From Candidatus Calidihabitans tengchongensis (lineage in GTDB: Bacteria; Sysuimicrobiota; Sysuimicrobiia; Sysuimicrobiales; Kaftiobacteriaceae), in assembly GCA_031459615.1 (NCBI GenBank), contig JAVKIE010000012.1, forward strand, positions 1,405-65,404: 64,000 bases of DNA, written 5' to 3'. The notes below the pieces were generated by a model. That model was not told the origin of the DNA and did not search any database. It saw only the letters and a program-made list of their open reading frames with translations. Shown piece by piece: positions 5,079 to 44,445 of this stretch. A program made the position numbers and the translations under genes. Position 1 is the stretch's first letter; the number at the start of each line of letters is the position of its first letter.

Positions 5079-7241
5079 TCACCTCTCCGTGGAGAGTCTC
5101 GCTGCGTGTCTCCGGGTGTCGCGCCGCGATGCGGCCTCCGCCGCCCGGGATGGCGGGCCCGCCGCGACGGCGGCCGGAGCCTCCGGAACCGCACTGATCC
5201 GGGAGAAGTCCCCCACCGTCCGGAACAGGTCCACCACCGCCCGCAGCAGCGCGAGCCGGTTGGCGCGCACCCGGGCATCCGGAGCCATCACCAGCACCTC
5301 GTCGAAGACGCGGTCCACCAGCGCCGGCACGCCGGCCAGCGCCTCCACCGCCTGCAGGTAGTCGCCGGATTCGGCGGCCTGCCGCAGCCGGGGGCGGAGC
5401 TGCTCCACCTCCCGGTAGAGATCGGCTTCCGCCGCGCTCTCAAACAGGGCGGGATCCACCTGCGGGGCCGCCTCCGGAGTGAGGATGCGGGCGGCCCGCT
5501 CGGCGGCCGTCAGCAGTCGTCCCCACTCGGGCCGGCCGGAGGCCTCCTGCAGCGCCCGCGCCCGCTCGGCGGCGGCCAGCAGGTCGGCGCCGCTGACCGC
5601 CACGGCCGCGTCCACCAGGTCCGGCCGCAGCCCGCGCTCCACCAGCGAGGCGCGCAGGCGCTGGCGGAGGATCTCCAGGGCCTGCTCGGCGGCCTCGGGG
5701 ACGCCGAAGGGCTCCGCGGCCGCCCGGCACAGGTCGTCGAGGGGAATGCGCTCTCCCAGCATGAGGACGATCTCCACCACGCCCTGGGCCACCCGGCGCA
5801 GGCCGTAGGGGTCGGCCGAGCCGGTGGGAGCCAGCCCCGCGGCCAGCCCGCCCACCAGCGTGTCCACCCGGTCGGCCAGGCCCAGCAGTGCTCCCAGGCG
5901 CGTGCGCGGCGGGCTGTCGGAGGCTCCGGCGGGCCGGTAGTGCTCCCCGATGGCCCGGGCCACCTCCGCCGGCTCGCCGTCCAGTTCCGCGTAGATCTGT
6001 CCCACCACGCCCTGCAGCTCGGGAAACTCCCCCACCATCTTGGTGACCAGGTCGGCCTTGCACAGGGTGGCCGCCCGCAGCAGGGCCTCGGTGGTGTGGC
6101 CGTCCAGCAGCATCCGCGCCGCCAGGTGGCGGGCCAGGGCGGTGATCCGGCGGGTCTTGTCGGCCATCGTCCCCAGGCGCTCGTGCACCACCACCCCCTC
6201 CAGCCGGCGGGCGTGCTCCTCCAGCCGGTGGCGGCGGTCGTCCTCGAAGAAGAAGCGGGCGTCGGCCAGGCGGGCGTGCAGGACCCACTCGTGGCCCCGG
6301 CGCACGGTGTCCAGGTGGACCCGGTCGCCGTCCCGCACCGCGATGAAGTACGGCAGCAGCCGCCCGCCCTCGGCCTCCACGGCGAAGTACTTCTGGTGGT
6401 GCTGCATCACCGTCACCAGCACCGGCCGCGGCAGGTCCAGGAACTGCTCGCTGTACGATCCCCGGAAGACCTGGGGGTGCTCCACGCTCATCACGACCTC
6501 GTCCAGCAGCGACGGATCCAGCACCGGCGCCCCGCCCACCGCCCGGGCCAGGGCCGCAGCCTGCGCGGTGATGACCCGGCGCCGGCGGGCCGGGTCGACC
6601 ATCACGCCCGCCGCCCGCAGGACCCGCACGTAGTCGGCCGGCGACGGAATCCGGCGGCGCCGCCCGCCGTCCAGGACCCGGTGGCCGACCGTCAGCGCCC
6701 CGGACTGTACCCCGGCCACCTGCAGCGGCAGGACCTGCCGCCCCCACAGGGCCACCACCCACCGGACGGGGCGGGCAAAGCGCGCCTCCCCGTCTCCCCA
6801 CCGCATGGTCTTGGAGAAGGACAGGCCCCGGACCACCTCCTCCAGGGCCGCGGGCAGGACCTCGGCGGCCGGCCGCCCGGGCTCGGCGAGGACCGCCACC
6901 GCGTACCGGCGGCCGTCGGACTCCCGCACCTGCAGCTGCTCCACCGGGACGCCCTGGCTGCGGGCGAATCCCCGGGCCGCCTCGGTGGGCTGGCCGCGGC
7001 TGTCGAAGGCCACGTGGGCCGCCGGCCCCCGCACCTCCCGCACGGCGGGCGCCTGGCGGGGCGCCACCTGGCGGACCACGGCCGCCAGCCGGCGCGGGGT
7101 CCCGTAGGTCCGCACGGGTCCCGCCTTCAGGCGCAGCGACCGCAGCGCCTGCGCGATGCCGGAGGCCAGCTGCTCCAGAGCCGGCGCGATCTCCCGCGGA
7201 GGGAGCTCCTCGGTCCCGATTTCCAGCAGCAGGTCGGGCAT
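5079..7241 (-). CDS. glyS: glycine--tRNA ligase beta subunit
   Basis: Starts [25 protein letters not shown], at M121 of the over-extended 840-aa track ORF; 720 aa. Its ATG shares one nt with the glyQ stop (TGATG). Confidence 0.93.
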   Translation of the reverse strand: MPDLLLEIGTEELPPREIAPALEQLASGIAQALRSLRLKAGPVRTYGTPRRLAAVVRQVAPRQAPAVREVRGPAAHVAFDSRGQPTEAARGFARSQGVPVEQLQVRESDGRRYAVAVLAEPGRPAAEVLPAALEEVVRGLSFSKTMRWGDGEARFARPVRWVVALWGRQVLPLQVAGVQSGALTVGHRVLDGGRRRRIPSPADYVRVLRAAGVMVDPARRRRVITAQAAALARAVGGAPVLDPSLLDEVVMSVEHPQVFRGSYSEQFLDLPRPVLVTVMQHHQKYFAVEAEGGRLLPYFIAVRDGDRVHLDTVRRGHEWVLHARLADARFFFEDDRRHRLEEHARRLEGVVVHERLGTMADKTRRITALARHLAARMLLDGHTTEALLRAATLCKADLVTKMVGEFPELQGVVGQIYAELDGEPAEVARAIGEHYRPAGASDSPPRTRLGALLGLADRVDTLVGGLAAGLAPTGSADPYGLRRVAQGVVEIVLMLGERIPLDDLCRAAAEPFGVPEAAEQALEILRQRLRASLVERGLRPDLVDAAVAVSGADLLAAAERARALQEASGRPEWGRLLTAAERAARILTPEAAPQVDPALFESAAEADLYREVEQLRPRLRQAAESGDYLQAVEALAGVPALVDRVFDEVLVMAPDARVRANRLALLRAVVDLFRTVGDFSRISAVPEAPAAVAAGPPSRAAEAASRRDTRRHAARLSTER

Positions 7242-8134
7242 CAGCGGGTGCGGGCGGCCACAGGCGCCTCCCGCAGCAGGGGATAGCCCTGCTCGGCCCG
7301 CCGGGCCACGTAGCGCTCCGCGCACCGGCGGGCCAGGGCCCGGCACCGCGCCATCAGGGCCGTGCGCTCGGCCACCGTGATCGCCCCGCGGGCGTCCAGC
7401 AGGTTGAACAGGTGCGAGCACTTCAGCACGTGGTCGTACGCCGGCAGGACCAGGCCCAGATCCAGCAGCCGGCCGGCCTCCCGCTCGCTGCTGGCGAAGG
7501 CGTCCCGCAGCGCGGGCACGTCGGCGTGGTCGAAGGCGTACGCCGACTGCTCGGCCTCCTCCTGCCGGCGCACCTCCCCGTAGGTGATGCCGGGCGCCCA
7601 CTCGATGTCGTAGACGCTGGACCGCCCCTGGATGTACATGGTGATGCGCTCCAGGCCGTAGGTGATCTCGGCGGCCACGGGGCGCACCTCCAGGCCGCCC
7701 ATCTGCTGGAAGTAGGTGAACTGGGTGATCTCGTTGCCGTCCAGGAACACCTGCCAGCCCAGCCCCGCGGCCCCCAGGGTCGGCGACTCCCAGTCGTCCT
7801 CCAGGAACCGCACGTCGTGCTCCCGCAGGCGGATGCCCAGGGCCGCCAGGCTGGCCAGGTACAGGTCCTGGACGTCGTCGGGAGAGGGCTTGAGGATCAC
7901 CTGGTACTGGTAGTGCTTGAACAGCCGGTGGGGGTTCTCCCCGTAGCGCCCGTCGGCCGGGCGGCGGGACGGCTGCACGTAGGCCACCCGCCAGGGCTCG
8001 GGGCCCAGCGAGCGGAGGAACGTGGCCGGGTGCATCGTCCCTGCCCCCACCTCCAGGTCGTAGGGCTGCTCGATGAGACAGCCCCGGGCCGCCCAGTACC
8101 GCTCCAGGGCCATGATCACGTCCTGAAAGGTCAT
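7241..8134 (-). CDS. glyQ: glycine--tRNA ligase alpha subunit
   Basis: 297 aa. [41 protein letters not shown] is the highly conserved GlyQ N-terminus. Confidence 0.96.
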
Positions 8135-8152
8135 CGGATCACCCGGGTGGGT

Positions 8153-8245
8153 GAAACGTTGGAACGTTCAAACGTTGGAACGTTGAAACGTTGGATCGTT
8201 GGAACATCGTGGCTGACGTTTCAACGCTTCAACGGTTCAACGGTC
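8153..8245. repeat. 8-bp periodic AACGTT array with an inverted arm, between the small ORF and glyQ
   Basis: Perfect AACGTT at 8155, 8163, 8171, 8179 and 8187 (exact 8-bp spacing), then ATCGTT at 8195. An inverted arm GACGTT-TCAACGCT-TCAACGGT-TCAACGGT lies at 8215-8245. Locally much lower GC than the flanks. Confidence 0.85.
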
Positions 8246-8260
8246 TTTTCTCTCCGCTCC

Positions 8261-8521
8261 CTACCCGATCCCCAGGGGTTCTTCGGACCGCTCCCGCTCC
8301 CGCCGCCGCACCGACGGCATCGGGACGCTGCTGAGGACGGCGGCCACCGCGAACGCCACCGCCCCGGCCACCGCCCACGACACCGGCAGCTCGATCACCC
8401 GGTCCTCGGTCTTGAGCCGCACCACGCCGTCGGGACCGGGCCGGACGACCCCCCGCGCCTCCTCCAGCGCCGTGCCCAGCTGCAACAACGCCCGTCGCGC
8501 CCGCTCCAGGTCCAGCTCCAC
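8261..8521 (-). CDS. small hypothetical protein with one predicted TM helix
   Basis: 86 aa. GTG start follows GGAGGTGA. Hydrophobic stretch WAVAGAVAFAVAAVLSSV. It occupies the recO-glyQ slot where Bacillus carries a small yqzL-type gene. No family recognised. Confidence 0.5.
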   Translation of the reverse strand: MELDLERARRALLQLGTALEEARGVVRPGPDGVVRLKTEDRVIELPVSWAVAGAVAFAVAAVLSSVPMPSVRRRERERSEEPLGIG

Positions 8522-8542
8522 CGCCTGTCACCTCCACCCGCC

Positions 8543-8551
8543 ACTATAGCA
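8543..8551 (-). promoter_or_regulatory. extended -10 promoter element (TGcTATAGT) upstream of the small ORF/glyQS
   Basis: The minus strand reads GGTGTGCTATAGTGGCGGGTGGAGGTGACAGGC-GTG. No good -35 is present. Confidence 0.4.
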
Positions 8552-8586
8552 CACCGCCGGACGACGTCTGTCGGATCGCCACCCGA

Positions 8587-9399
8587 TCAGCCCTCCTCCT
8601 GTCGGTCCCCCTCCGCCGGCGGGTGATGCGGACGGTCGGCCGAGCCCGGTCGCGGCGCGGGTGACACCCCCATCCGGCGCGCCACGGCGGGCACGCGCAG
8701 GGTGGTCTCCAGCCGGTATTCCAGGTAGCGGCGCAGCGCCCGCCCCACCTCCTCCCGCACGCGCCGGTCCCAGGCGGCGGGGTCCTCTGGCGGCGCGGCG
8801 GCGTCCAGCAGGTGCTCCAGAGCACCGCGCGCCCGGGCCGACAGCGGTTCCGCGGCGGGATCCCGCTGGCGGTGGGCGCCGCAGAGCACGCCGCCCAGGG
8901 CCAGGCTCAGCGCCCCGGCCGGGGCGGCCCGGCCGCACACCTGGCAGCGGGCGAGCTGCGGAGCGTAGCCGCTGCGGACCAGGACCTGCGCCGCCGCCCA
9001 CAGGGCCGCCAGCTCGGGGTCGCCGGTCTCGATGGCGCCCAGGGCGCGGTCGAGGACGTCGAACATCTCCGGGGCCGGCTGGCGCTCGTCGGTGGCCCGG
9101 TCCACCACCTCCACCGCGAAGGCGGCGGCGCTGAGCCGGTCCAGGTCCTCCCGCAGCCGGGCCCGGGAGGCCACCACCTCCACCTGAGTCACCACATCCA
9201 GGGTGCGTCCCACCGCCAGCAGCGCCCGGACGCGGGAAAACGGCTCCAGGCGGCCGGCCAGGCGGCTGCCCGGACGGCGCGCCCCGCGGGCCACGGCCGC
9301 CACCTTCCCCTGGTCGCGGCAGAACAGGGTCACCACCCGGTCGGCCTCACCCAGCGGGGTGCGGCGCAGCACGATGGCCTCGACCCTGTAGACGGGCAT
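8587..9399 (-). CDS. recO: DNA repair protein RecO
   Basis: MPVYRVEAIVLRRTPLGEADRVVTLFCRDQGKVAAVARGARRPGSRLAGRLEPF is the RecO OB-fold N-terminus. A CxxC...C zinc motif follows (CQVCGR...LCGAH). Confidence 0.9.
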   Translation of the reverse strand: MPVYRVEAIVLRRTPLGEADRVVTLFCRDQGKVAAVARGARRPGSRLAGRLEPFSRVRALLAVGRTLDVVTQVEVVASRARLREDLDRLSAAAFAVEVVDRATDERQPAPEMFDVLDRALGAIETGDPELAALWAAAQVLVRSGYAPQLARCQVCGRAAPAGALSLALGGVLCGAHRQRDPAAEPLSARARGALEHLLDAAAPPEDPAAWDRRVREEVGRALRRYLEYRLETTLRVPAVARRMGVSPAPRPGSADRPHHPPAEGDRQEEG

Positions 9400-9402
9400 C
9401 GC

Positions 9403-10689
9403 TCAGAAGGCGGCGACCAGCAGCAGGCTGAGGATCGCCATGCCGGCGACGGTGACTCCCGCCACCGCGTTGGCCGCCGGCGTGTTGACGTGGGGGCCCA
9501 TCACCGCCGGGTCGTTCACCAGGAGGATGATGACGGCGAGGACGGCGGGCAGCAGGATGCCGTTGAGGACCTGGGAGAGGACCATGACCCGGACCAGGGG
9601 CAGGCCCGGGATCAGGATGACCAGGGCCGAGGCCACCAGGACCCCGGTGAACAGGCCGAAGAACACCGGCGCCTCCCCGACGGACCGGTCCAGGCCGGCC
9701 TCCCACCCGAAGGCCTCGCACACGGCGTAGGCCGTGGACAGGGGAATGATGGCCACGGAGAAGACGGCGGCGTTCAGCAGCCCGGCGGCGAACAGCCCCG
9801 CGGCGTAGCGGCCGGCCAGCGGCTCCAGGGCCCGCGCGGCGTCGGCGGCGGTGCTGATCGGCGTCCCGTGGACGTAGAGGGTGGCGCCGCAGGCCACGAC
9901 GATGAAGAACGCCACCAGGTTGGTGGTGACCATGCCCAGGTAGGTGTCCAGCCGCACCTGGGGGTAGTCCCGGACGGTCAGCCCCTTGTCCACCACGGCG
10001 GCCTGCTGGTAGAACTGCATCCACGGCGCGATGGTGGTCCCCACCACGCCGATGGCCATGGCCACGAACGCGGGGTCGCGGGAGAACGCCGGGGTCACCG
10101 TCGCCCGCAGGACCTCCCCCCAGGGCGGGCGGGCCAGGACCGCCGACGCCACGTAGGTCGCGTACACCAGGGTGGCGGCCAGGAACACCCGCTCCACCCG
10201 GCGGTAGGTGCCGCGCACCACGAGGAGCCACACCGCCGCGGCCGCCAGCGGCACCGCCAGGTAGCGGCTGACGCCGAAGATCTCGGCCGCGCCCGCCACG
10301 CCCGCGAAGTCTCCCACGGTGTTGGCCCAGTTGGCCACGACCAGGACGCCCATGACCAGGACGGTGGTCCGGACCCGGAAGCGTTCCCGGATCAGGTCGG
10401 CCAGCCCCTTGCCCGTCACCGCCCCCATCCGGGCTACCATCTCCTGGACCACGGCCAGGGCCACGGTCGAGAGCAGCAGCGTCCACAGCAGCCGGTAGCC
10501 GAAGGCAGCCCCCGCCACCGAGTAGGTGGCGATGCCGTTGGCGTCGTTGTCCACGTTGCCGGTGATGATCCCGGGGCCCATGACAGCCGCGAACGCGGCC
10601 AGGCGGGCCCAGCGTGCGGCGAGCCACCCCCGCCCGGGCAGACCGACCCGGGCGTCTGCGGGTGCCCGGCGCCGGCGGGAGAAGATCAC
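9403..10689 (-). CDS. NRAMP/SLC11-family divalent cation transporter with non-canonical (NRMT-like) binding-site residues
   Basis: NRAMP TM1 and TM6 signatures are recognisable: GPGIITGNVDNDANGIAT and GVVGTTIAPWMQFY. About 11 hydrophobic segments. Start placed at the GTG at 10687-10689 (V384 of the 811-aa track ORF), which overlaps the upstream stop as GTGA. The first internal ATG, at 10581, would remove the N-terminus. Confidence 0.85.
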   Translation of the reverse strand: MIFSRRRRAPADARVGLPGRGWLAARWARLAAFAAVMGPGIITGNVDNDANGIATYSVAGAAFGYRLLWTLLLSTVALAVVQEMVARMGAVTGKGLADLIRERFRVRTTVLVMGVLVVANWANTVGDFAGVAGAAEIFGVSRYLAVPLAAAAVWLLVVRGTYRRVERVFLAATLVYATYVASAVLARPPWGEVLRATVTPAFSRDPAFVAMAIGVVGTTIAPWMQFYQQAAVVDKGLTVRDYPQVRLDTYLGMVTTNLVAFFIVVACGATLYVHGTPISTAADAARALEPLAGRYAAGLFAAGLLNAAVFSVAIIPLSTAYAVCEAFGWEAGLDRSVGEAPVFFGLFTGVLVASALVILIPGLPLVRVMVLSQVLNGILLPAVLAVIILLVNDPAVMGPHVNTPAANAVAGVTVAGMAILSLLLVAAF

Positions 10690-11972
10690 CGCCGTCTCCG
10701 GGCGCGCCGGCGGAACCGGGGCGGGACCCGGCGGCGGCCTTTGCGCAGGACCACGTCCATGACGTCGTCGACCGTCACCACCCCCAGCAGCCGGCCGTCG
10801 GGATCCACCACGGGCAGGGCCAGCAGGTCGTAGGTGGTCAGGGCCGCGGCCACCGTCTCCAGGTCGTCGTCGGGGTGCAGCGTCACCACCTGAGGGGTCA
10901 TGATCTCCGCGATGGGGGTGGCGGGACTGGCCACGATCAGCGCCCGCAGGGGCAGGACCCCCACCAGGCGGCCGGCGCCGTCCACCACGTACAGGTAGTA
11001 GATGTGTTCGGCTCGGGGAGCCAGGGCGCGCAGCCGCTGGAGGGTCTGGTCCACCGTCAGGTCCCGGGGCAGGGCGATCGCCTCGGTGGTCATCACGCTG
11101 CCGGCCGTGCCCTCGGGATACTGGAGCAGCGTCCGGACGTCGCGGGCCTCCTCGGGGGCCATGTGGCTGATCAGTTCCTGGGCCCGCTCGGGGGGCAGGT
11201 CGGTGAGGATGTCGGTGGCGTCGTCGGGCGCCATCTCCTCCAGGATGTCGGCGGCCACGTCGGTGGGCAGGGTGCGCATCACGTCGGCCTGCACCTGGGG
11301 CGCGGCCTCGGCCAGGGCCTCCGCCGCCTGCTCGTGGCCCAGGGCGGCCACCACCTCGACCCGCTCGGCCCGGTCCAGGTCGGCCATCAGCGCTGCCAGG
11401 TCGGCCGGGTGGATCTCCCGCAGCCTCTGCCGGGAGATGCTCAGGCGCACCGCCGTCCGCGGGCCCGCAAACGCCGCGACCATCGCCCAGGGGATGAGCC
11501 GCTCCGGCAGCTGCCGTCCCAGCAGGCCGGCGACCCACCGCGCCGCCCGTTCCAGGCCCACGCGCCGCAGCAGTCCCGCCGTCCCCACGTCCACGGCCGA
11601 CAGCCGCAGGGACCCGTCGGCCGGGGACAGCTGCAGGTCGTTGACCCGGACCACCTTCAGCCCGTCGGTGTCCACCACCTGGGTGTCCAGCAGGTCTCCC
11701 AGCAGCATCTCCTCCGGCTGCAGCGGGCGCGGCTGGAGGTGGCGGCGGGCCACCCGCAGCCTCACCTCCCCCGGGCCCAGGCGGTCCACCGCCTCCCAGG
11801 GGATCAGCGCCACCTTGCTGCGGTCCCCGCGCATCCACAGCCCGGTGACCCGGGGCAGGGGATCCCGCAGGTCCACCGCCACGTCCCCCAGGACACCCAG
11901 ACGGGTTCCCTCGCTGTCGACGATGGCCGCGCGCAGGATGGTGCTGACGTACACGCCCACACCCCCGGCCAA
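10686..11972 (-). CDS. soluble PRC-barrel x2 + MgtE N-domain + CBS-pair protein (MgtE cytosolic module without the membrane domain)
   Basis: Two PRC-barrel-like segments: ILRAAIVDSEGTRLGVLGDVAVDL and LLDTQVVDTDGLKVVRVNDLQL. MgtE_N-like acidic helices: PADLAALMADLD...DILEEMAPDDATDILTDLPPERAQELI. CBS pair: AGSVMTTEAIALPRD...YLYVVDGAGRLVGVLPLRAL...IMTPQVVTL...LLALPVVDPDGRLLGVVTVDDVMD. It ends in an Arg-rich tail with no TM helices. TTG start at 11972; an alternative GTG at 11954 follows GGGGGTG. Confidence 0.8.
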   Translation of the reverse strand: MAGGVGVYVSTILRAAIVDSEGTRLGVLGDVAVDLRDPLPRVTGLWMRGDRSKVALIPWEAVDRLGPGEVRLRVARRHLQPRPLQPEEMLLGDLLDTQVVDTDGLKVVRVNDLQLSPADGSLRLSAVDVGTAGLLRRVGLERAARWVAGLLGRQLPERLIPWAMVAAFAGPRTAVRLSISRQRLREIHPADLAALMADLDRAERVEVVAALGHEQAAEALAEAAPQVQADVMRTLPTDVAADILEEMAPDDATDILTDLPPERAQELISHMAPEEARDVRTLLQYPEGTAGSVMTTEAIALPRDLTVDQTLQRLRALAPRAEHIYYLYVVDGAGRLVGVLPLRALIVASPATPIAEIMTPQVVTLHPDDDLETVAAALTTYDLLALPVVDPDGRLLGVVTVDDVMDVVLRKGRRRVPPRFRRRARRRR

Positions 11973-11982
11973 GATGCGTGGG

Positions 11983-12033
11983 CTTCTTCCTGCCCTCCCC
12001 GCCTCTTCCCTCTTCCTTCTTCCCTCTTCCCTA
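11983..12033 (-). repeat. polypurine (GGGAARA)n tract starting at the era stop codon
   Basis: The minus strand reads TAGGGAAGAGGGAAGAAGGAAGAGGGAAGAGGCGGGGAGGGCAGGAAGAAG. Confidence 0.85.
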
Positions 12034-13035
12034 CTGCGGATACAGCCGCCTCACCACGGCGTCCTGGTCGCGCCAGCGCGGGGTCGTCTTGACCCACAGG
12101 TCCAGGTACACCCGGCGGCCCAGCAGCGCCTCGATCTCCTGCCGCGCCCTCCGGCCGACCTCCCGCAGCATGCGCCCGTCCCGGCCGATGAGGATCTTCT
12201 TGTGGGACTCCCGCTCCACGTGCAGGGTGGCCCGGATGTAGACCACGTCCGTCCCCTCCCGGGGGGCGAACTCCTCGATCTCGACGGCGATGCTGTGGGG
12301 GACCTCCTCCCGGGTCAGGTGGATGGCGGCCTCCCGGATGAGCTCCCGGGCCAGGAACTGCTCGGGCTGGTCGGTCACCATGTCCGGGGGGTAGTACGGC
12401 GGCCCCACCGGCAGCAGGCCCACCAGGGTCTCCACCAGCCGGTCCAGGCCGGCGCCGGTCAGGGCGGAGACCGGCAGGACCGCTGTCCACGTCCCCAGGC
12501 CGGCGACCCGGTCCTGGACGGCGGCCAGGCCGGCCGGATCGGTCCGGTCCACCTTGTTGAGGACCGCCACCACCGGCGCCGCCTGGGCCCGCAGCCGGGC
12601 GGCCACCTCCTCGTCCTCTGCGGTCACGCCCTCGGAGGCGTCCACCACCCACGCCACCGCGTCGGCGTCGGCCACCGCCCGGACGGCGGTCTCGACCATC
12701 CACTGCCCCAGCCGGTGCCGGGGCTGGTGCAGTCCGGGGGTGTCGACGAAGACCAGCTGGGCGTGCGGGAGGGTCAGGATGGCGGCGAGGCGGCTGCGGG
12801 TGGTCTGGGGGACCGGGGCGGTGATGGCCACCTTGTGCCCCACCAATCGGTTGACCAGCGTGGACTTGCCCACGTTGGGGCGGCCCACCACGGCCACGAA
12901 GCCCGAGCGGTGGTCGGGGGGCGGGGAACTGCCGGGAGCCGGAATCGGGAATCGGGGATCCGAGTGCCGGGATCCGGGGTCCGGAAGGACGTCCCTCCCC
13001 CTTTCACCCTCCAGCCTCCGACCTTCAACCTTCAC
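12031..13035 (-). CDS. era: GTPase Era
   Basis: GFVAVVGRPNVGKSTLVN (G1), DTPG (G3), NKVD (G4), and a C-terminal KH domain (HVERESHKKILIGRDGRMLREVG). The only in-frame start before the G1 motif is the GTG at 13033-13035, overlapping the cdd stop as GTGA. This gives a repeat-encoded extension of about 45 aa. Confidence 0.85.
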   Translation of the reverse strand: MKVEGRRLEGERGRDVLPDPGSRHSDPRFPIPAPGSSPPPDHRSGFVAVVGRPNVGKSTLVNRLVGHKVAITAPVPQTTRSRLAAILTLPHAQLVFVDTPGLHQPRHRLGQWMVETAVRAVADADAVAWVVDASEGVTAEDEEVAARLRAQAAPVVAVLNKVDRTDPAGLAAVQDRVAGLGTWTAVLPVSALTGAGLDRLVETLVGLLPVGPPYYPPDMVTDQPEQFLARELIREAAIHLTREEVPHSIAVEIEEFAPREGTDVVYIRATLHVERESHKKILIGRDGRMLREVGRRARQEIEALLGRRVYLDLWVKTTPRWRDQDAVVRRLYPQ

Positions 13036-13460
13036 CGTACCCGTCGCCGGGGCAGGCGGTCGGCCAGAAACGGTTCCGCCAGCAGGCGGCGCAGCGACCG
13101 CACCCGGACGCGGCCGCCGGGCGTGGCCGCCACCACCCGCCGGACGCCGAACTCCGCCATCACCTGGCGGCAGGCGCCGCAGGGCATCGCCGGATCGTCT
13201 CCGTCGGCCACCACCGCCACCTCCACCACGCGGCGGTGGCCGTCCGCCACCGCCCGGTGGATGGCCACCCGCTCGGCGCAGTGGGACAGGGAGTAGGACG
13301 CGTTCTCCACGTTGCACCCGGTGTAGATGGACCCGTCGGCGGTGCGCACCGCCGCCCCCACCCGGAAGCCCGAGTACGGCGCATACGCGTGCCGCCGGGC
13401 CTGCGAGGCGGCCTCGATCAGTTCCGCCAGCCCGCGGGCGCGGGTCCCCCGCCGCGTCAT
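13032..13460 (-). CDS. cdd: cytidine deaminase
   Basis: 142 aa. YAPYSGFRVGAAV, CAERVAI and PCGACRQV are the zinc-binding CDA motifs. The ATG overlaps the upstream stop as ATGA. Confidence 0.9.
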   Translation of the reverse strand: MTRRGTRARGLAELIEAASQARRHAYAPYSGFRVGAAVRTADGSIYTGCNVENASYSLSHCAERVAIHRAVADGHRRVVEVAVVADGDDPAMPCGACRQVMAEFGVRRVVAATPGGRVRVRSLRRLLAEPFLADRLPRRRVR

Positions 13461-14083
13461 GGGCGCCTGGCCGCCGTGGGGCCCGCCACCGTCAGCGGGT
13501 GGGAGGGGGTGACGATCCCTCCCGACATCACCATCTTGAGGGCGTCCTCCACGGACATCTCCAGGGGGATCACCTGGTCTTCGGGCACCAGCACCAGAAA
13601 GCCGGTGGTGGGGTTGGGCGTGGTCACCACGAACACGTTGAGCACCCGCTCGGGGGTCCGCTCCTGGGGTTCGCCCACGCTCTCTCCGGTCACGAACCCC
13701 ACCGTGTAGATGCCCCGCCGGGGCCACTCGATCAGGACCACCCGCTGAAAGGCGGACCGCCGCTGCAGGAACAGGCTGTCGGTGAGCTGCTTGACCGCCG
13801 AGTAGACGCTGCGGGCCAGGGGGATGCGCAGCATCAGCCGGTCGACCAGCTCCACCACCCGCCGGCCCAGCATGTTGGTGGCCAGCATGCCGGAGACCAG
13901 GATCACCACCAGCAGGGTCAGCAGGCCCAGCAGGGGAATCCGGGTGCCGATCAGGGGGACGAAGAACTGGCCCAGCAGGCCGTCCAGCACCCGCAGCGCC
14001 CACAGCAGGACGTTGAGGGTGACCGCCAGGGGCAGGACCACGATGAGGCCGGTGATGAAGTAGCGGCGCAGGCGGGCACGCAT
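13457..14083 (-). CDS. DUF502-family membrane protein
   Basis: 208 aa, starting at the internal ATG of the 553-aa track ORF. RRYFITGLIVVLPLAVTLNVL...RIPLARSVYSAVKQL...TTPNPTTGFLVLVP matches the DUF502 pattern. Confidence 0.75.
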   Translation of the reverse strand: MRARLRRYFITGLIVVLPLAVTLNVLLWALRVLDGLLGQFFVPLIGTRIPLLGLLTLLVVILVSGMLATNMLGRRVVELVDRLMLRIPLARSVYSAVKQLTDSLFLQRRSAFQRVVLIEWPRRGIYTVGFVTGESVGEPQERTPERVLNVFVVTTPNPTTGFLVLVPEDQVIPLEMSVEDALKMVMSGGIVTPSHPLTVAGPTAARRP

Positions 14084-14121
14084 CGAGGACCGCACGCCTC
14101 CCGGCGGTGGGGCGGCCCCCT

Positions 14122-15402
14122 TCACGGCCGCAGGGGGCCCGCCGGCACCTTGCGGGTGATCCGGACGCGGGCGATCCGGTGGCCCTCCAGCTTCTCGACC
14201 ACGATCTCCACGTCGCCGACGGTCACCGTCTCCCCCTGCTGGGGGACGTGACCCAGCAGCGCGAAGACGAATCCGCCCACCGTGTCCACCTCGCCAGTGG
14301 GCAGGTGCAGCCCCATCAGCTCGTTGACCTCTTCCAGGCTCATGCGCCCGTCCACCAGGGCGGTGTGGGCGTCCACCTGCTCGAACAGCTTCTCCTCCAC
14401 GTCGTACTCGTCCAGGATCGGCCCCACGATCTCCTCGAGCAGGTCTTCCACCGTCACCAGGCCGGCCGTGCCGCCGTACTCGTCCACCACGATGGCCATG
14501 TGGGTCCGCCGGCGGCGCATCTCCCGGAACAGGTCGTCCAGCCGCTTGCTCTCGGGCACGAAGAACGCCGGCCGCATGACCTCCCGCACCGGGAGGGCGT
14601 TGTGGCCGGCCCGGATGTGGCTGAGCAGGTCTTTGACGTGCACCACCCCGACGATCTGGTCGATGGTCTCGCGGTAAACCGGGATGCGGGAGTGCCCTTC
14701 CTCGATGACGACCCGCAGCACGCCCTCCAGGGGCGTGGTGTCCTCCACGCACACCATGTCGATGCGCGGGACCATCACCTCCCGGACCACCTTGTCCCCG
14801 AACTCGAAGATGGAGTGGATCATCTGACGCTCGTCCTTTTCGATGACCCCCTCCTCTTCGCCGAGCTTCAGCAGCAGCCGGATCTCCTCTTCCGTCACCA
14901 GGGGCGAGGTCAGGTCCACCCGCCCGCCCAGGGGGCGCACCAGCAGGTTGCTCGCCACCGACAGGACCCGGATCACCGGGGCCAGCAGCGCGGTCAGCGC
15001 CGCCACCGGGCGGCTGACCCACAGGCTCAGCCGGTCGGCGTGCTTGGCGGCAAACGTCTTGGGGGTGATCTCGCTGACGATGAGCAGGACCACCGACATC
15101 ACCGCCACAGCCGCCCACGGGCCGCGGCGGATCCCCAGCAGGTCCACGAACAGGCTCGCGGCCAGGACCGAGGCGGCGATGTTGACCAGGTTGTTGCCCA
15201 CCAGCAGGGCCGTCAGCACCCGCCCGGGATCCTCCAGCAGACGCAGCACGCGGGCAGCGCGGGGATCACCCGCATCGCGCTGCTGGCGCAGCCTCAACCG
15301 GTTGGCGGCCAGGAGGGCAGTTTCGGATCCCGAGAAGAACGCCGACAGAATCAATAAGGCAGCCAGCAGAACCCAGCCCCACGGGCTACTCGACGGATCC
15401 AA
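14122..15402 (-). CDS. CNNM/CorC-HlyC family protein (DUF21 + CBS pair + CorC_HlyC domain), putative Mg2+/Co2+ efflux
   Basis: [13 protein letters not shown] (DUF21), a CBS pair ([12 protein letters not shown]...[21 protein letters not shown]) and a C-terminal transporter-associated domain. TTG start at 15400-15402, about 12 nt after AAGGAG. Confidence 0.85.
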
Positions 15403-15443
15403 CGACGGCAGTCACTCCTTTTGACGCGGGCGCGTCGCTACCG

Positions 15444-15452
15444 ATTATACCA
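15444..15452 (-). promoter_or_regulatory. extended -10 promoter (TGgTATAAT) upstream of the CNNM/CorC gene
   Basis: The minus strand reads GGGCGTGGTATAATCGGTAGCGACGCGCCCGCGTCAAAAGGAGTGA. The -35 is weak (GGAACA). Confidence 0.5.
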
Positions 15453-15463
15453 CGCCCTGCAGC

Positions 15464-15517
15464 CCCTGTTCCCTTTTCCCTTCTCCCTTTTCCCTTTTCC
15501 TTTTTCCCTTTTCCCTA
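15464..15517 (-). repeat. polypurine (GGGAAAA)n tract starting at the ABC ATPase stop codon
   Basis: The minus strand reads TAGGGAAAAGGGAAAAAGGAAAAGGGAAAAGGGAGAAGGGAAAAGGGAACAGGGG, with seven G3+ runs separated by 3-5 nt loops apart from one 11-nt spacer. Confidence 0.9.
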
Positions 15518-16300
15518 CTGATGCAGGATCTTCGACAGAAACTGGCGCGTGCGGGGGTGGGTGGGAGCGGTGAAGAAGTGCTCGGGGGGACCCTCTTCCA
15601 CGATGACCCCTTCGTCCATGAAGACCATGCGGTCGGCCACCTCGCGGGCAAACCCCATCTCGTGGGTGACCACGATCATCGTCATGCCGGCGTCCCGCGC
15701 CAGGCCCCGCATCACGTCCAGGACCTCCTGGATCATCTCCGGGTCCAGGGCGGAGGTCGGTTCGTCGAAGAGCATGATCTTGGGCTGCATGGCCAGCGCC
15801 CGGGCGATGGCCACCCGCTGCTGCTGGCCGCCCGACAGCTGGGCGGGATAGGCGTGGGCTTTCTCGGGGATGCCGACCCGCTCCAGCAGCTCCAGGGCGA
15901 TGCGTTCGGCCCGCTCCCGGGGCCACCGGCGGACGACGAGGGGCGCCAGGGTGATGTTCTGCAGGGCCGTGAGGTGGGGGAACAGGTTGAACGACTGGAA
16001 GACCATGCCCACCTCGCTGCGCACGGCGTCGATGTTGCGCACGTCGTCGGTGAGCTCGATGCCGTCCACCACGATCCGTCCCCGCTGGTGGCTCTCCAGC
16101 CGGTTGATGCACCGGATCATGGTGGACTTGCCCGAGCCCGACGGGCCGGCCACCACCACCACCTCGCCCGGCCACACCTGGAGGTTGATCCCCCGCAGGA
16201 CGTGCAGGCGGCCGAACCACTTGTGGACGTCCTCCAGGATGATGATGGGCTCGCCGGTCCGCGGCGGCGGTGTGTGCACCCGGTCCTGGGTCATCGACAT
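15515..16300 (-). CDS. amino-acid ABC transporter ATP-binding protein (AapP/GlnQ-like)
   Basis: Walker [10 protein letters not shown], signature [15 protein letters not shown], Walker [21 protein letters not shown] precedes the ATG. Confidence 0.93.
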
Positions 16301-16342
16301 GGACCTCTCCTCATCTTCAGTATAGCCCGGAGCCGGCCGCCC

Positions 16343-17359
16343 TCACCGCTCGCCCAGCCCCATGGCCTTCTCCAGCCGGCGGCTGGCGGCCGAGAGGATC
16401 GAGGTGAAGGCGAAGTACACCACCAGCAGGAAGACGTACACCTCCTGCACGTCGTGGAGATACCGGGTGATGGCCAGCAGCGCCCGCCCGGTCCCCACCA
16501 GCTCGCTGAGGCCGATGATGACCGCCAGGGACGTGTCCTTGAACAGGCTGATGAACTGTCCCACCAGGGCGGGGATCATGTTCGTGATGGCCTGGGGGAG
16601 GACCACGGTGCGCATGGTCTGCCACCCGCTCAGCCCCAGGGCGCGGGCCGCCTCCACCTGTCCCCGGGATACCGACTGGATGCCTCCGCGGACGATCTCG
16701 GCCACGTAGGCCGAGGTGAACACGGTCATGGCCACCATGGCCCGCTGGACCCGGCTCAGGGCGTCCCCCGACACCAGGGTCACGAACACCGAAAACCACA
16801 GGAGGACGGTGATGAAGGGGACGCCGCGGATCACCTCGATGTACACCGTGGCCAGGGCGCGGACCACCGGCAGGCGGCTGACCCGACCGATACCGACCAC
16901 CACCCCGATGGGGAACGACGCCCCGATGGCCACCGCCGCCAGGAGCACGGTGAGGTACAGCCCCCCCACCTGGTCCAGCCGCACCGGCGACATCACCCAC
17001 CCCGCGCCCACCAGAACGCCGGCCCACGCCCCGGCCAGGCGCCGGCCGGCCACCCCCGCCCGCAGACCCAGGACGGTGAGCGCGGCCATGGCCACCACCA
17101 GGCCGCCCGCCCAGTAGGCGCGCCAGACCAGTTCCACGGGCATCAGCCCCACCAGCCAGAAGCGCAGGTTCTCGGTGACCACCGCCCAGTGGGCGCGGGC
17201 CGCCCACCGGGCCACCGAGGCCGCGGCGGCCAGGACGCCGGCGGCGGTGAGCACCGTCAGCAGGGAGTTGGCCACCCCGTCGAAGAGGTTGCGGCGGGCC
17301 CACTCCCGGACCGTCAGCCGCTCCGCCGGCGCAGCCAGGACATCGGCGCGCGTCGCCAC
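16343..17359 (-). CDS. amino-acid ABC transporter permease (AapM-like)
   Basis: 338 aa, multi-TM. EAARALGLSGWQTMRTVVLPQA is the EAA loop of polar amino-acid permeases. Confidence 0.88.
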   Translation of the reverse strand: MATRADVLAAPAERLTVREWARRNLFDGVANSLLTVLTAAGVLAAAASVARWAARAHWAVVTENLRFWLVGLMPVELVWRAYWAGGLVVAMAALTVLGLRAGVAGRRLAGAWAGVLVGAGWVMSPVRLDQVGGLYLTVLLAAVAIGASFPIGVVVGIGRVSRLPVVRALATVYIEVIRGVPFITVLLWFSVFVTLVSGDALSRVQRAMVAMTVFTSAYVAEIVRGGIQSVSRGQVEAARALGLSGWQTMRTVVLPQAITNMIPALVGQFISLFKDTSLAVIIGLSELVGTGRALLAITRYLHDVQEVYVFLLVVYFAFTSILSAASRRLEKAMGLGER

Positions 17360-44399: not shown

Positions 44400-44445
44400 T
44401 GTTCTCCCCTCTCCCCTCTTCCCTCTTCCCTCTTCCCTTCCCTCA
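44400..44445 (-). repeat. polypurine (GGGAAGA)n tract starting at the GH63-like gene stop codon, at a convergent gene junction
   Basis: The minus strand reads TGAGGGAAGGGAAGAGGGAAGAGGGAAGAGGGGAGAGGGGAGAAC, with six G3+ runs and 2-4 nt loops. Confidence 0.9.

Follow-up and report, generated by a model that had tools for sequence, protein, structure and literature searches.

In the window, the 64,000-nucleotide stretch of contig JAVKIE010000012.1 of Candidatus Calidihabitans tengchongensis that was analysed, two adjacent genes of the reverse strand encode a membrane-less protein with MgtE-type domains (hereafter the accessory protein) and, immediately downstream, a transporter related to the SLC11/NRAMP family (Table 1). 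The transporter gene begins with GTG, encodes 428 aa and ends with a stop codon at 9403-9405; recO starts at 9399, 3 nt further downstream. The TGA of the accessory gene (10688-10686) and the GTG of the transporter gene (10689-10687) overlap, giving a 4-nt gene overlap that a previous inspection of this DNA, here called the sequence-only reading, had already recognised as a GTGA stop/start, and a GGAG motif (10699-10696) lies 6 nt ahead of this GTG. Both open reading frames were recovered at the coordinates given in that reading, on the minus strand; the start of the accessory gene at 11972 is ambiguous. Indeed, TTG 11972, GTG 11960 and GTG 11954 are all candidate starts, and the near-identical database entries, which are 422 aa long, fit GTG 11954 and favour it.

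Table 1. Features of the accessory-NRMT locus and of its surroundings (window coordinates)
Feature	Position	Strand	Evidence
Accessory gene, PRC-PRC-MgtE_N-CBS-CBS-basic tail, membrane-less, 428 aa from TTG 11972	10686..11972	-	ORF, Pfam, NCBIfam, AF2
PRC-barrel-like segment 1, residues 7-70	11763..11954	-	Pfam PRC, AF2 model
PRC-barrel-like segment 2 and helical hairpin, residues 84-169	11466..11723	-	Pfam, hhalign, AF2 secondary structure
MgtE_N acidic helical domain, residues 187-288	11109..11414	-	Pfam, TtMgtE alignment
CBS pair, residues 292-409	10746..11099	-	Pfam, TtMgtE alignment
Arg-rich C-terminal tail, residues 410-428	10689..10745	-	12 Arg and 1 Lys of 19 residues
Junction: GGAG, spacer, NRMT GTG over accessory TGA	10686..10699	-	Sequence
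NRMT-type (NRAMP-related Mg2+ transporter) gene	9403..10689	-	Pfam Nramp, 7QIA match
TM1 binding-site motif D49-A-N-G52 (DxxG)	10534..10545	-	Alignment to D55...G58 of EleNRMT and DPGN of classical NRAMPs
TM6 motif T218-T-I-A221-P-W223 (TxxA)	10021..10038	-	Identical to EleNRMT T224...A227, W229
CNNM/CorC-type gene (context only)	14122..15402	-	CNNM, CBS and CorC_HlyC (Pfam), co-directional run

A transporter of the NRMT clade

Judged by its sequence, the transporter is a member of the NRMT clade of SLC11/NRAMP, as had been proposed in the sequence-only reading. Indeed (i) it matches the Nramp model PF01566 with 332.6 bits (cut-off 29.8) over profile positions 1-356 of 357, (ii) in a search of solved structures its best relative is EleNRMT, the NRAMP-related Mg2+ transporter of Eggerthella lenta (7QIA, E 3.9e-113), whereas the classical Mn2+/Fe2+ NRAMPs reach 1.5e-22 at best and are otherwise weaker, (iii) it shares 48% identity with EleNRMT over 392 gapless residues, and (iv) it scores far under the cut-offs of the NCBIfam MntH models.

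The published NRMT signature consists of DxxG on TM1 and TxxA/T on TM6, replacing DPGN and AxxM (PMC8806188). This DxxG-TxxA signature is complete in the window transporter (D49, G52, T218, A221), within the contexts NDANG on TM1 and GTTIAPWM on TM6. HMMER alignments to solved NRAMPs set D-A-N-G opposite D-P-G-N of two classical NRAMPs and T-T-I-A-P-W opposite A-x-x-M-P-H of the solved classical proteins; the exchanges of Asn for Gly, Ala for Thr and Met for Ala noted earlier therefore hold, and no canonical Asn or Met occupies the binding site in the alignments to NRAMPs and to the E. lenta NRMT. The first His of TM6b is a Trp (W223), as in EleNRMT, the acidic residue of TM3 is kept as D127, and the alpha10 Gln is present. 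When compared with EleNRMT (7QIA/7QIC/7QJI/7QJJ; Ramanadane et al. 2022, PMC8806188), the window transporter is identical at D55, G58, T224, A227, W229 and Q379 and has a conservative Asp in place of E133. EleNRMT, which was characterised without an accessory protein, also transports Mn2+, is not proton-coupled and requires T224 for Mg2+ transport (PMC8806188). The widened binding site of the window transporter is likewise predicted to accept Mg2+ without proton coupling, and the annotation "Nramp family divalent metal transporter" would here stand for a transporter of the Mg2+ type.

An MgtE-type sensor module without a pore

Joined to two PRC barrels, the accessory protein has the whole cytoplasmic, Mg2+-sensing portion of MgtE but not the pore. 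Pfam detects PRC (PF05239, 34.9 bits, cut-off 21.2), MgtE_N (PF03448, 95.7 bits) and CBS (PF00571, 75.9 bits) in the accessory protein and no match to the MgtE membrane model PF01769, a hydropathy scan of the same protein gives no membrane helix, and the NCBIfam model TIGR00400 (mgtE) covers it only at model positions 23-254 of 450, with 191 bits (cut-off 232.75). The ORF ends 19 residues past CBS2, and the C-terminus directly after this domain reads RKGRRRVPPRFRRRARRRR, with 13 basic residues out of 19. Both the sensor without transmembrane helices and the stop after CBS2 with an Arg-rich tail had been described from the letters alone, and both were retrieved. An assignment of the protein as an MgtE channel was discarded in view of the missing PF01769 match, the missing hydrophobic helix and the early end of the ORF; the basic tail occupies the position that the acidic plug helix has in MgtE channels. 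When searched by itself, PRC-like segment 1 scores 21.4 bits and segment 2 scores 20.2 bits (E 6e-4), slightly below the 21.2-bit cut-off; the two segments are weakly similar to each other (hhalign E 7.7e-5), and segment 1 is all-beta in the AF2 model, with a block pLDDT of mostly 76-93.

The cytosolic domain of Thermus thermophilus MgtE (TtMgtE, 2YVY) is matched with an E-value of 3e-50 and shares 46% identical residues in an alignment of about 230 columns, and the AF2 model of the accessory protein superimposes on the Mg2+-bound 2yvy structure with a target-normalised TM-score of 0.84 and an rmsd of 2.3 A. The accessory protein thus has the N domain and CBS fold and the acidic Mg4-Mg7 ligands in common with TtMgtE (2YVX/2ZY9; 2YVY), but it has neither the plug helix nor the five-helix pore, carries two additional N-terminal PRC-like segments, and has a Leu in place of the ATP-stacking Phe. 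The six Mg4-Mg7 ligand positions that were checked are all conserved: E218, D250 and D254 of the MgtE_N domain correspond to E59, D91 and D95 of TtMgtE, and D382, D403 and D406 of the CBS pair to D226, D247 and D250. In a family alignment of 58 sequences, consisting of the window accessory and 57 NRMT-linked homologues, D95 is conserved in 57, D247 in 49 and D91 in 48 sequences; D226 is replaced by Asn in 34 and D250 is variable. Among the ATP contacts, Y326 (TtMgtE Y170) and R343 (R187) are retained, and D188, N203 and F227 are altered to A344, T359 and L383, respectively. In 42 of the 58 family members the residue corresponding to F227 is a Leu, and the F227A exchange abolishes ATP binding in MgtE. 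ATP sensing by the accessory protein was discarded because these three contact residues are replaced; of the Mg2+/ATP sensor suggested by the sequence-only reading, the Mg2+ part was thus retained and the ATP part was not.

The same PRC-MgtE_N-CBS cassette also occurs covalently joined to other transporters. Proteins of about 600 aa, for example P0365, P0372 and P0377, combine it in cis with an MgtE pore, and in P0375 it is part of the same polypeptide as a complete Mg2+ P-type ATPase of the MgtA type (TIGR01524, 1119.8 bits), whose gene is preceded by an M-box riboswitch (125 bits). That the cassette is covalently attached to two further kinds of Mg2+ importer speaks for its direct action on a transporter.

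Conservation and genomic context of the gene pair

The NRMT motifs were found in at least 598 species-level genome matches, and linkage was surveyed within 4 kb of the NRMT gene at the best 80 loci among these matches. An accessory gene is present at 66 of the best 80 loci and lies upstream on the same strand at 62, where its stop codon precedes the codon that aligns with residue 26 by at most 150 nt in 49 of these 62; it is missing from the neighbourhood at 14 loci, 2 of which have too little upstream sequence to judge. The surveyed loci belong to Acidobacteriota, Chloroflexota, Nitrospirota, Desulfobacterota, Omnitrophota, Planctomycetota, Bacillota and two methanogen lineages. This co-occurrence supports the accessory gene and the NRMT gene as a conserved two-gene unit, in agreement with the earlier suggestion. 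Relatives of EleNRMT in the Eggerthellaceae, 91-93% identical to the crystallised construct, are encoded 3-4 nt downstream of a gene for a PRC-MgtE_N-CBS protein of 450 aa. In database searches, about 30 pairs of an accessory match and an NRMT match agree in the length of their longest contig, which partly supports the linkage as seen from the membrane-less cassette. An 858-aa ORF at L024 that seemed to be an accessory-NRMT fusion was rejected, the two genes being divided by an in-frame TAG.

The sequence-only reading knew of no characterisation of such a pairing, which was in fact reported in 2014: most NrmT genes adjoin a gene for an MgtE cytoplasmic domain, for which a cytoplasmic feedback regulation was speculated and a metal-chaperone activity was offered as an alternative (Shin et al. 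2014, PMC4072509). The window pair is a well-preserved copy of this arrangement and is not new. It has the same gene order and both protein families in common with the operons of that study (Clostridium acetobutylicum Ca_c0685; Acidobacterium capsulatum ACP_2976/2977), but it has no M-box and is located inside a housekeeping run of an uncultured, high-GC (about 73%) lineage. In the only published test, a single one, co-expression of the A. capsulatum accessory protein with its transporter in Bacillus subtilis left the rescue unchanged (PMC4072509).

The housekeeping run surrounding the pair has the order cdd-era-[pair]-recO-glyQS. In relatives, the CNNM gene is part of a ybeY-dagK-ABC-CNNM-DUF502-cdd-era string that continues with recO-glyQS, and the pair is inserted into this string. 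A CNNM gene is found within 4 kb of the NRMT gene at 5 of the best 80 loci, two of them from the lineage of the window itself, recO at 4 and era at 1. The CNNM/CorC identity proposed earlier for 14122-15402 is confirmed by Pfam, but the local Mg2+ homeostasis cluster postulated around it is weak, and the CNNM gene was rejected as a part of such a cluster on account of the conserved string and of the 5 loci out of 80. It may nevertheless be co-transcribed with the accessory-NRMT pair: a TGgTATAAT element is located upstream of the CNNM gene, and no terminator-like site was found in the intergenic spaces from CNNM to recO, the three matches all lying inside coding sequence. Polypurine tracts were rejected as a regulatory element common to the Mg2+ genes: relatives lack the one that precedes the accessory gene here, and a third copy is located in an unrelated convergent region.

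The position of the accessory gene, flanked by era and recO and in the same run as CNNM, could also suggest that its product acts apart from the transporter, either as an Mg2+ buffer or chaperone, in line with the metal-chaperone alternative raised by Shin et al. (PMC4072509), or by signalling to the ribosome/Era, to the CNNM exporter or to the nucleotide pool. Such a role is highly unlikely, since the linkage to NRMT extends across phyla whereas the CNNM, recO and era neighbours are lineage-specific, and since the cassette is covalently fused to two other Mg2+ importers.

No M-box (RF00380) was detected: the whole window gave no match above the gathering threshold, and positions 9000 to 17000 gave none with E<=10. 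The intergenic space between the accessory gene and era is about 58 nt. M-box riboswitches are present ahead of the pair at two other loci (L015 and L052) and have been reported as frequent, but not universal, ahead of NrmT pairs (PMC4072509). The A. capsulatum NrmT-group protein, encoded next to an MgtE-like gene without an M-box, fully rescued an Mn2+ mutant and only partly an Mg2+ mutant (PMC4072509). This result, together with the Mn2+ transport of EleNRMT (PMC8806188) and the lack of an M-box in the window, would fit a unit that is mainly an Mn2+ (transition-metal) importer, with an accessory protein sensing Mn2+ or another cation. This is an unlikely explanation in view of the full DxxG-TxxA site including T218, the equivalent of EleNRMT T224, of the MgtE Mg2+ ligands conserved in the accessory protein, and of the other carriers of the cassette, which are MgtE pores and an MgtA under M-box control.

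Possible regulation of the transporter by the accessory protein

The two genes probably encode an NRMT-type transporter and its soluble regulatory subunit, acting as a feedback sensor, and the product annotated as a "CBS domain-containing protein" would accordingly be an NRMT accessory subunit. [quoted passage not shown] The closed form could then engage the NRMT in trans from its cytoplasmic side and lower the uptake when the cell has sufficient Mg2+, with the basic C-terminal tail and the PRC module as candidate contact elements. The outcome would be a negative feedback for an uncoupled transporter driven only by the membrane potential, of the kind that is built into MgtE and CorA. As for the direction of this regulation, inhibition as opposed to activation, we purely infer from MgtE that it would be inhibition. 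Several observations speak against the feedback reading: the unchanged rescue in the A. capsulatum test, the activity of NRMTs that lack the accessory protein in complementation and in proteoliposomes, the 14 loci out of 80 with no adjacent accessory gene, and the variable Mg2+-ligand positions in the family. In this genome, the control would take place mainly at the protein level, as the pair has no M-box and lies inside a run of housekeeping genes. The rationale for a feedback comes from EleNRMT, which is not proton-coupled (PMC8806188): an unregulated activity of uncoupled NRMTs should be risky to the cell.

A positive role of the accessory protein, which would activate, assemble, stabilise or tether the transporter without any feedback inhibition, is quite unlikely. 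The tight translational coupling of the genes suggests a stoichiometric co-production, EleNRMT by itself lacked stability in detergent and had to be given consensus mutations (PMC8806188), and the basic tail and PRC barrels could be anchoring elements; however, NRMTs relieve Mg2+ auxotrophy and are active as transporters in proteoliposomes without the accessory protein (PMC4072509, PMC8806188), and the homologous domains of MgtE shut the channel when Mg2+ is bound (PMC5882242).

For the window itself, the result is mainly a corrected annotation. NRMTs constitute a fourth class of prokaryotic Mg2+ importer, and to our knowledge the only structural and functional work on them, that on EleNRMT, was done without the neighbour-encoded protein, which is present in most genomes. 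If an MgtE-derived subunit does gate an unrelated transporter of the LeuT fold in trans, this would clearly exemplify the transfer of a regulatory module from one transporter family to another, and would account for the adjustment of NRMT activity to the Mg2+ level of the cell. More tentatively, and with somewhat less than even confidence, the cassette could be a portable Mg2+ gate used on three unrelated importer classes, joined covalently to MgtE pores and MgtA-type P-type ATPases but supplied to NRMT by a separate subunit whose gene is translationally coupled; this free form could dock on NRMT through its basic tail and PRC module. What has been published on NRMT in vitro would then concern a system of two subunits from which the regulatory one was missing. 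The PRC module of the window accessory is 40-46% identical to those of the cis-fused cassettes, which are covalently joined to their transporters whereas the window cassette is a separate polypeptide; in the MgtE-type fusions the cassette is followed by an acidic segment, where the window accessory has its charge-reversed, basic tail.

The transporter and the free-standing MgtE module

Both reading frames lie on the minus strand of the window (about 73% G+C), with exactly the limits proposed for them from the sequence, and they overlap as had been noted, the accessory TGA (10688-10686) being shared with the transporter GTG (10689-10687), which has a GGAG six bases upstream (see table). The accessory start is ambiguous between TTG 11972, GTG 11960 and GTG 11954, the last of which fits the 422-aa length of near-identical database entries.

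Features of the window and of database loci L081, L082 and L087
Feature	Position	Strand	Remarks
NRMT (transporter) gene	9403-10689	minus	428 aa; Pfam Nramp over the whole model, 332.6 bits
Accessory gene	10686-11972	minus	428 aa; Pfam PRC 34.9, MgtE_N 95.7, two CBS 75.9 bits
Housekeeping string DUF502-cdd-era ... recO-glyQ-glyS	5079-9399 and 12031-14100	minus	flanks the pair
Extended -10-like element TGgTATAAT	15444-15452	minus	about 40 nt 5' of the CNNM start; conserved in L081 and L082
Polypurine tracts of the (GGGAAG)n kind	12002-12032, 15469-15516, 44402-44444	minus	31-48 nt
ORF of 86-89 aa between recO and glyQ	8261-8521; L081 11437-11697; L082 11317-11586	minus (window)	shared location
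M-box, 1,314-aa cassette-MgtA fusion, 621-aa cassette protein	L087 1423-7883		also in L088

The identities of the two products are nearly certain. The transporter has a full set of membrane helices by hydropathy scan, and of all solved structures the one it matches best is 7QIA, the NRAMP-related Mg2+ transporter (NRMT) of Eggerthella lenta (EleNRMT; E 3.9e-113, 48% identity over 392 residues without a gap), whereas for classical NRAMPs of the Mn2+/Fe2+ type the E-values lie between 1.5e-22 and about 1e-8. The NRMT clade is defined by a DxxG-TxxA/T binding-site signature that replaces DxxN-AxxM (PMC8806188). Indeed, the transporter carries D49...G52 and T218...A221, and HMMER alignments set these positions opposite the D-P-G-N and A-x-x-M-P-H of two classical NRAMPs; in addition, W223 replaces the first TM6b histidine, and D127 and Q373 take the places of EleNRMT E133 and Q379. 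The NRMT-type substitutions read from the sequence are thus borne out by alignment with EleNRMT and with classical NRAMPs. Judged by its sequence, the transporter agrees with the NRMT clade at each point that can be tested, and the structure match together with the signature residues argues for membership.

The accessory protein had been described as the cytosolic part of an MgtE channel devoid of membrane helices, and this description holds: MgtE_N and CBS domains are present, the Pfam model of the MgtE membrane domain finds no match, NCBIfam mgtE covers positions 23-254 of 450 only (score below the cut-off), and no membrane helix appears in the hydropathy scan. It matches the cytosolic domain of Thermus thermophilus MgtE with E 3e-50 and 46% identity over about 230 aligned columns, and the last 230 residues of its AlphaFold2 model (70 homologues, mean pLDDT 82.6) can be overlaid on Mg2+-bound 2YVY with an rmsd of 2.3 A and a target-normalised TM-score of 0.84. 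Mutation of the acidic Mg4-Mg7 ligands of MgtE blocks Mg2+-dependent channel closure (PMC5882242), and all six (E59, D91, D95, D226, D247, D250) are kept, as E218, D250, D254, D382, D403 and D406. Among the ATP contacts of MgtE (PMC5529423), Y170 and R187 are kept, but Ala and Thr replace D188 and N203, and Leu replaces F227, which stacks on adenine; the F227 position is Leu in 42 of 58 family members. Of the "Mg2+/ATP sensor" proposed earlier, the Mg2+ part is therefore well founded and the ATP part is not. The two PRC-barrel-like segments seen in the sequence are also supported: in the model the N-terminal 170 residues consist of two all-beta segments and, after them, a helical hairpin, the segments scanned alone against PRC score 21.4 and 20.2 bits (cut-off 21.2), and they align weakly with each other (hhalign E 7.7e-5).

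Recurrence of the pair and of the cassette

The pairing, which had been thought uncharacterised, was already described in 2014 by Shin et al. (PMC4072509), who reported that most NrmT genes adjoin a gene for the MgtE cytoplasmic domain, often co-transcribed under an M-box riboswitch, and speculated on cytoplasmic feedback regulation or chaperone activity; the later NRMT and MgtE literature, as far as searchable, does not address the accessory protein. The pair in the window is a further instance, in a poorly known high-GC lineage. Our own survey agrees with Shin et al. on the conserved pairing. A motif scan of one genome per species yielded at least 598 NRMT loci; among the best 80, an accessory homologue lies within 4 kb of the NRMT gene in 66, and upstream on the same strand in 62. 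In 49 of these 62 at most 150 nt separate its stop from the codon that aligns with transporter residue 26 (71 nt in the window). The accessory matches span the whole protein, PRC region included, and none runs on into a membrane domain. The surveyed loci represent many phyla: Acidobacteriota, Chloroflexota, Nitrospirota, Desulfobacterota, Omnitrophota, Planctomycetota, Bacillota and two methanogen lineages. Close EleNRMT relatives, 91-93% identical to the crystallised construct, likewise have a 450-aa PRC-MgtE_N-CBS gene 3-4 nt upstream, so that the structurally characterised transporter has been studied without its genomic partner.

The remaining 14 of the 80 loci (e.g. L032, L057, L068, L070, L072-L074, L079) lack an accessory gene next to the NRMT gene and cluster in Acidobacteriaceae and Terriglobia; other members of these groups have the gene 0.4-1.2 kb off, with a very short tail (...LLRAKL).

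The PRC-PRC module alone, searched against 1.84 billion representative proteins, returned 1,470 relatives. The best 150 of these comprise 54 of membrane-less length (395-500 aa), 22 of about 600 aa, 72 shorter, many of them probably fragments, and two very long. The PRC-MgtE_N-CBS cassette is joined to an MgtE membrane domain in three proteins of about 600 aa, and three others of this size have a hydrophobic C-terminal region without domain assignment. Furthermore, P0375 (1,314 aa) is a fusion of the cassette with an entire Mg2+ P-type ATPase of the MgtA type (TIGR01524, 1119.8 bits, cut-off 610.75); it is present on two contigs of different sequencing runs, whose consecutive accessions leave the samples possibly non-independent. 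An M-box (125 bits) precedes its gene, and a 621-aa cassette-plus-membrane gene follows, whose hydrophobic C-terminal region matched no Pfam model. The cassette is thus attached to three kinds of Mg2+ importer, which offers a concrete and testable way to approach what the accessory subunit does. No mention of MgtE together with a PRC barrel was found in the literature searched.

In P0386, P0404 and P0429 (about 620-650 aa), the hydrophobic C-terminal part of some 200 residues does not match the MgtE membrane-domain model and may represent either a pore that has diverged or another kind of membrane domain. In P0366 (1,756 aa, ENA), 12 separate stretches match the PRC-PRC module.

A possible Mg2+-dependent brake

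Cis-fused MgtE-type proteins carry a strong negative charge (net -4 to -9 over 20 residues) in the stretch that follows CBS2, which in MgtE is the plug helix. The tail of the free-standing NRMT-linked proteins is short (median 10 residues); its net charge is positive in 44 of 54, the window's protein being an extreme case (13 of 19 residues basic). We infer that the accessory protein would bind millimolar Mg2+ between its N and CBS domains, close like the MgtE cytosolic domain and, once closed, restrain the NRMT from the cytoplasmic side, with the basic tail and the PRC module as likely contact elements. Such a brake would be useful because EleNRMT is not proton-coupled. Taken as a whole, this role as a Mg2+-sensing brake is rather probable; it builds on the observed identities, the conserved and often overlapping pair, the kept Mg2+ ligands and the cassette on other Mg2+ importers. 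For direct inhibitory gating in particular, the chances are about even.

The accessory protein might instead act positively or stabilise the transporter. In the one published experiment, rescue was no better when both Acidobacterium capsulatum genes were expressed together (PMC4072509); this counts against any strong requirement for the accessory protein and is silent on inhibition at high Mg2+. The system could also serve mainly Mn2+, as was found for A. capsulatum, or the accessory protein could act without touching the transporter; the attachment of the cassette to three kinds of Mg2+ importer argues for direct action on the transporter, with Mg2+ as the signal.

Genomic setting

The housekeeping genes cdd-era-recO-glyQS form a string that is widely conserved in Bacillus-like genomes; in proteobacteria, ybeY is linked to a gene of the CorC/YbeX type. 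A fairly close locus belongs to Candidatus Fervidifonticultor (phylum Sysuimicrobiota). The gene order in relatives (70-82% identity) is 7TMR-HD, ybeY, dagK, ABC ATPase, CNNM, DUF502, cdd, era, accessory, NRMT, recO, small ORF, glyQ, glyS, and the window follows it from the ABC ATPase gene on. The pair looks like an insertion between era and recO that is conserved in these relatives. A local Mg2+ homeostasis cluster including the CNNM gene had been suggested; only five of the 80 surveyed loci, two of them from the window's own lineage, have CNNM within 4 kb of NRMT, so the gene is better taken as context than as part of a dedicated cluster. The sequence-only reading was accordingly confirmed as an observation of the gene pair and right at the core of its interpretation, having overstated ATP and the CNNM cluster and erred on novelty.

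The CNNM gene could still be co-transcribed with the pair: the TGgTATAAT element may mark the start of a unit CNNM-DUF502-cdd-era-accessory-NRMT-recO, and the intergenic spaces from this element to recO hold no terminator-like site, the three scan hits lying inside coding sequence. No M-box was found in the window; one precedes the pair in 2 of 14 other loci tested.

The polypurine tracts, striking against the 73% G+C background, start at the stop codons of the minus-strand era, ABC ATPase and 448-aa genes; the tract before CNNM is retained in L081 (4395-4442), the others in neither L081 nor L082. For the small ORF between recO and glyQ, no Pfam match is recorded for the L081 and L082 products, and in the window's product the C-terminal segment is hydrophobic.
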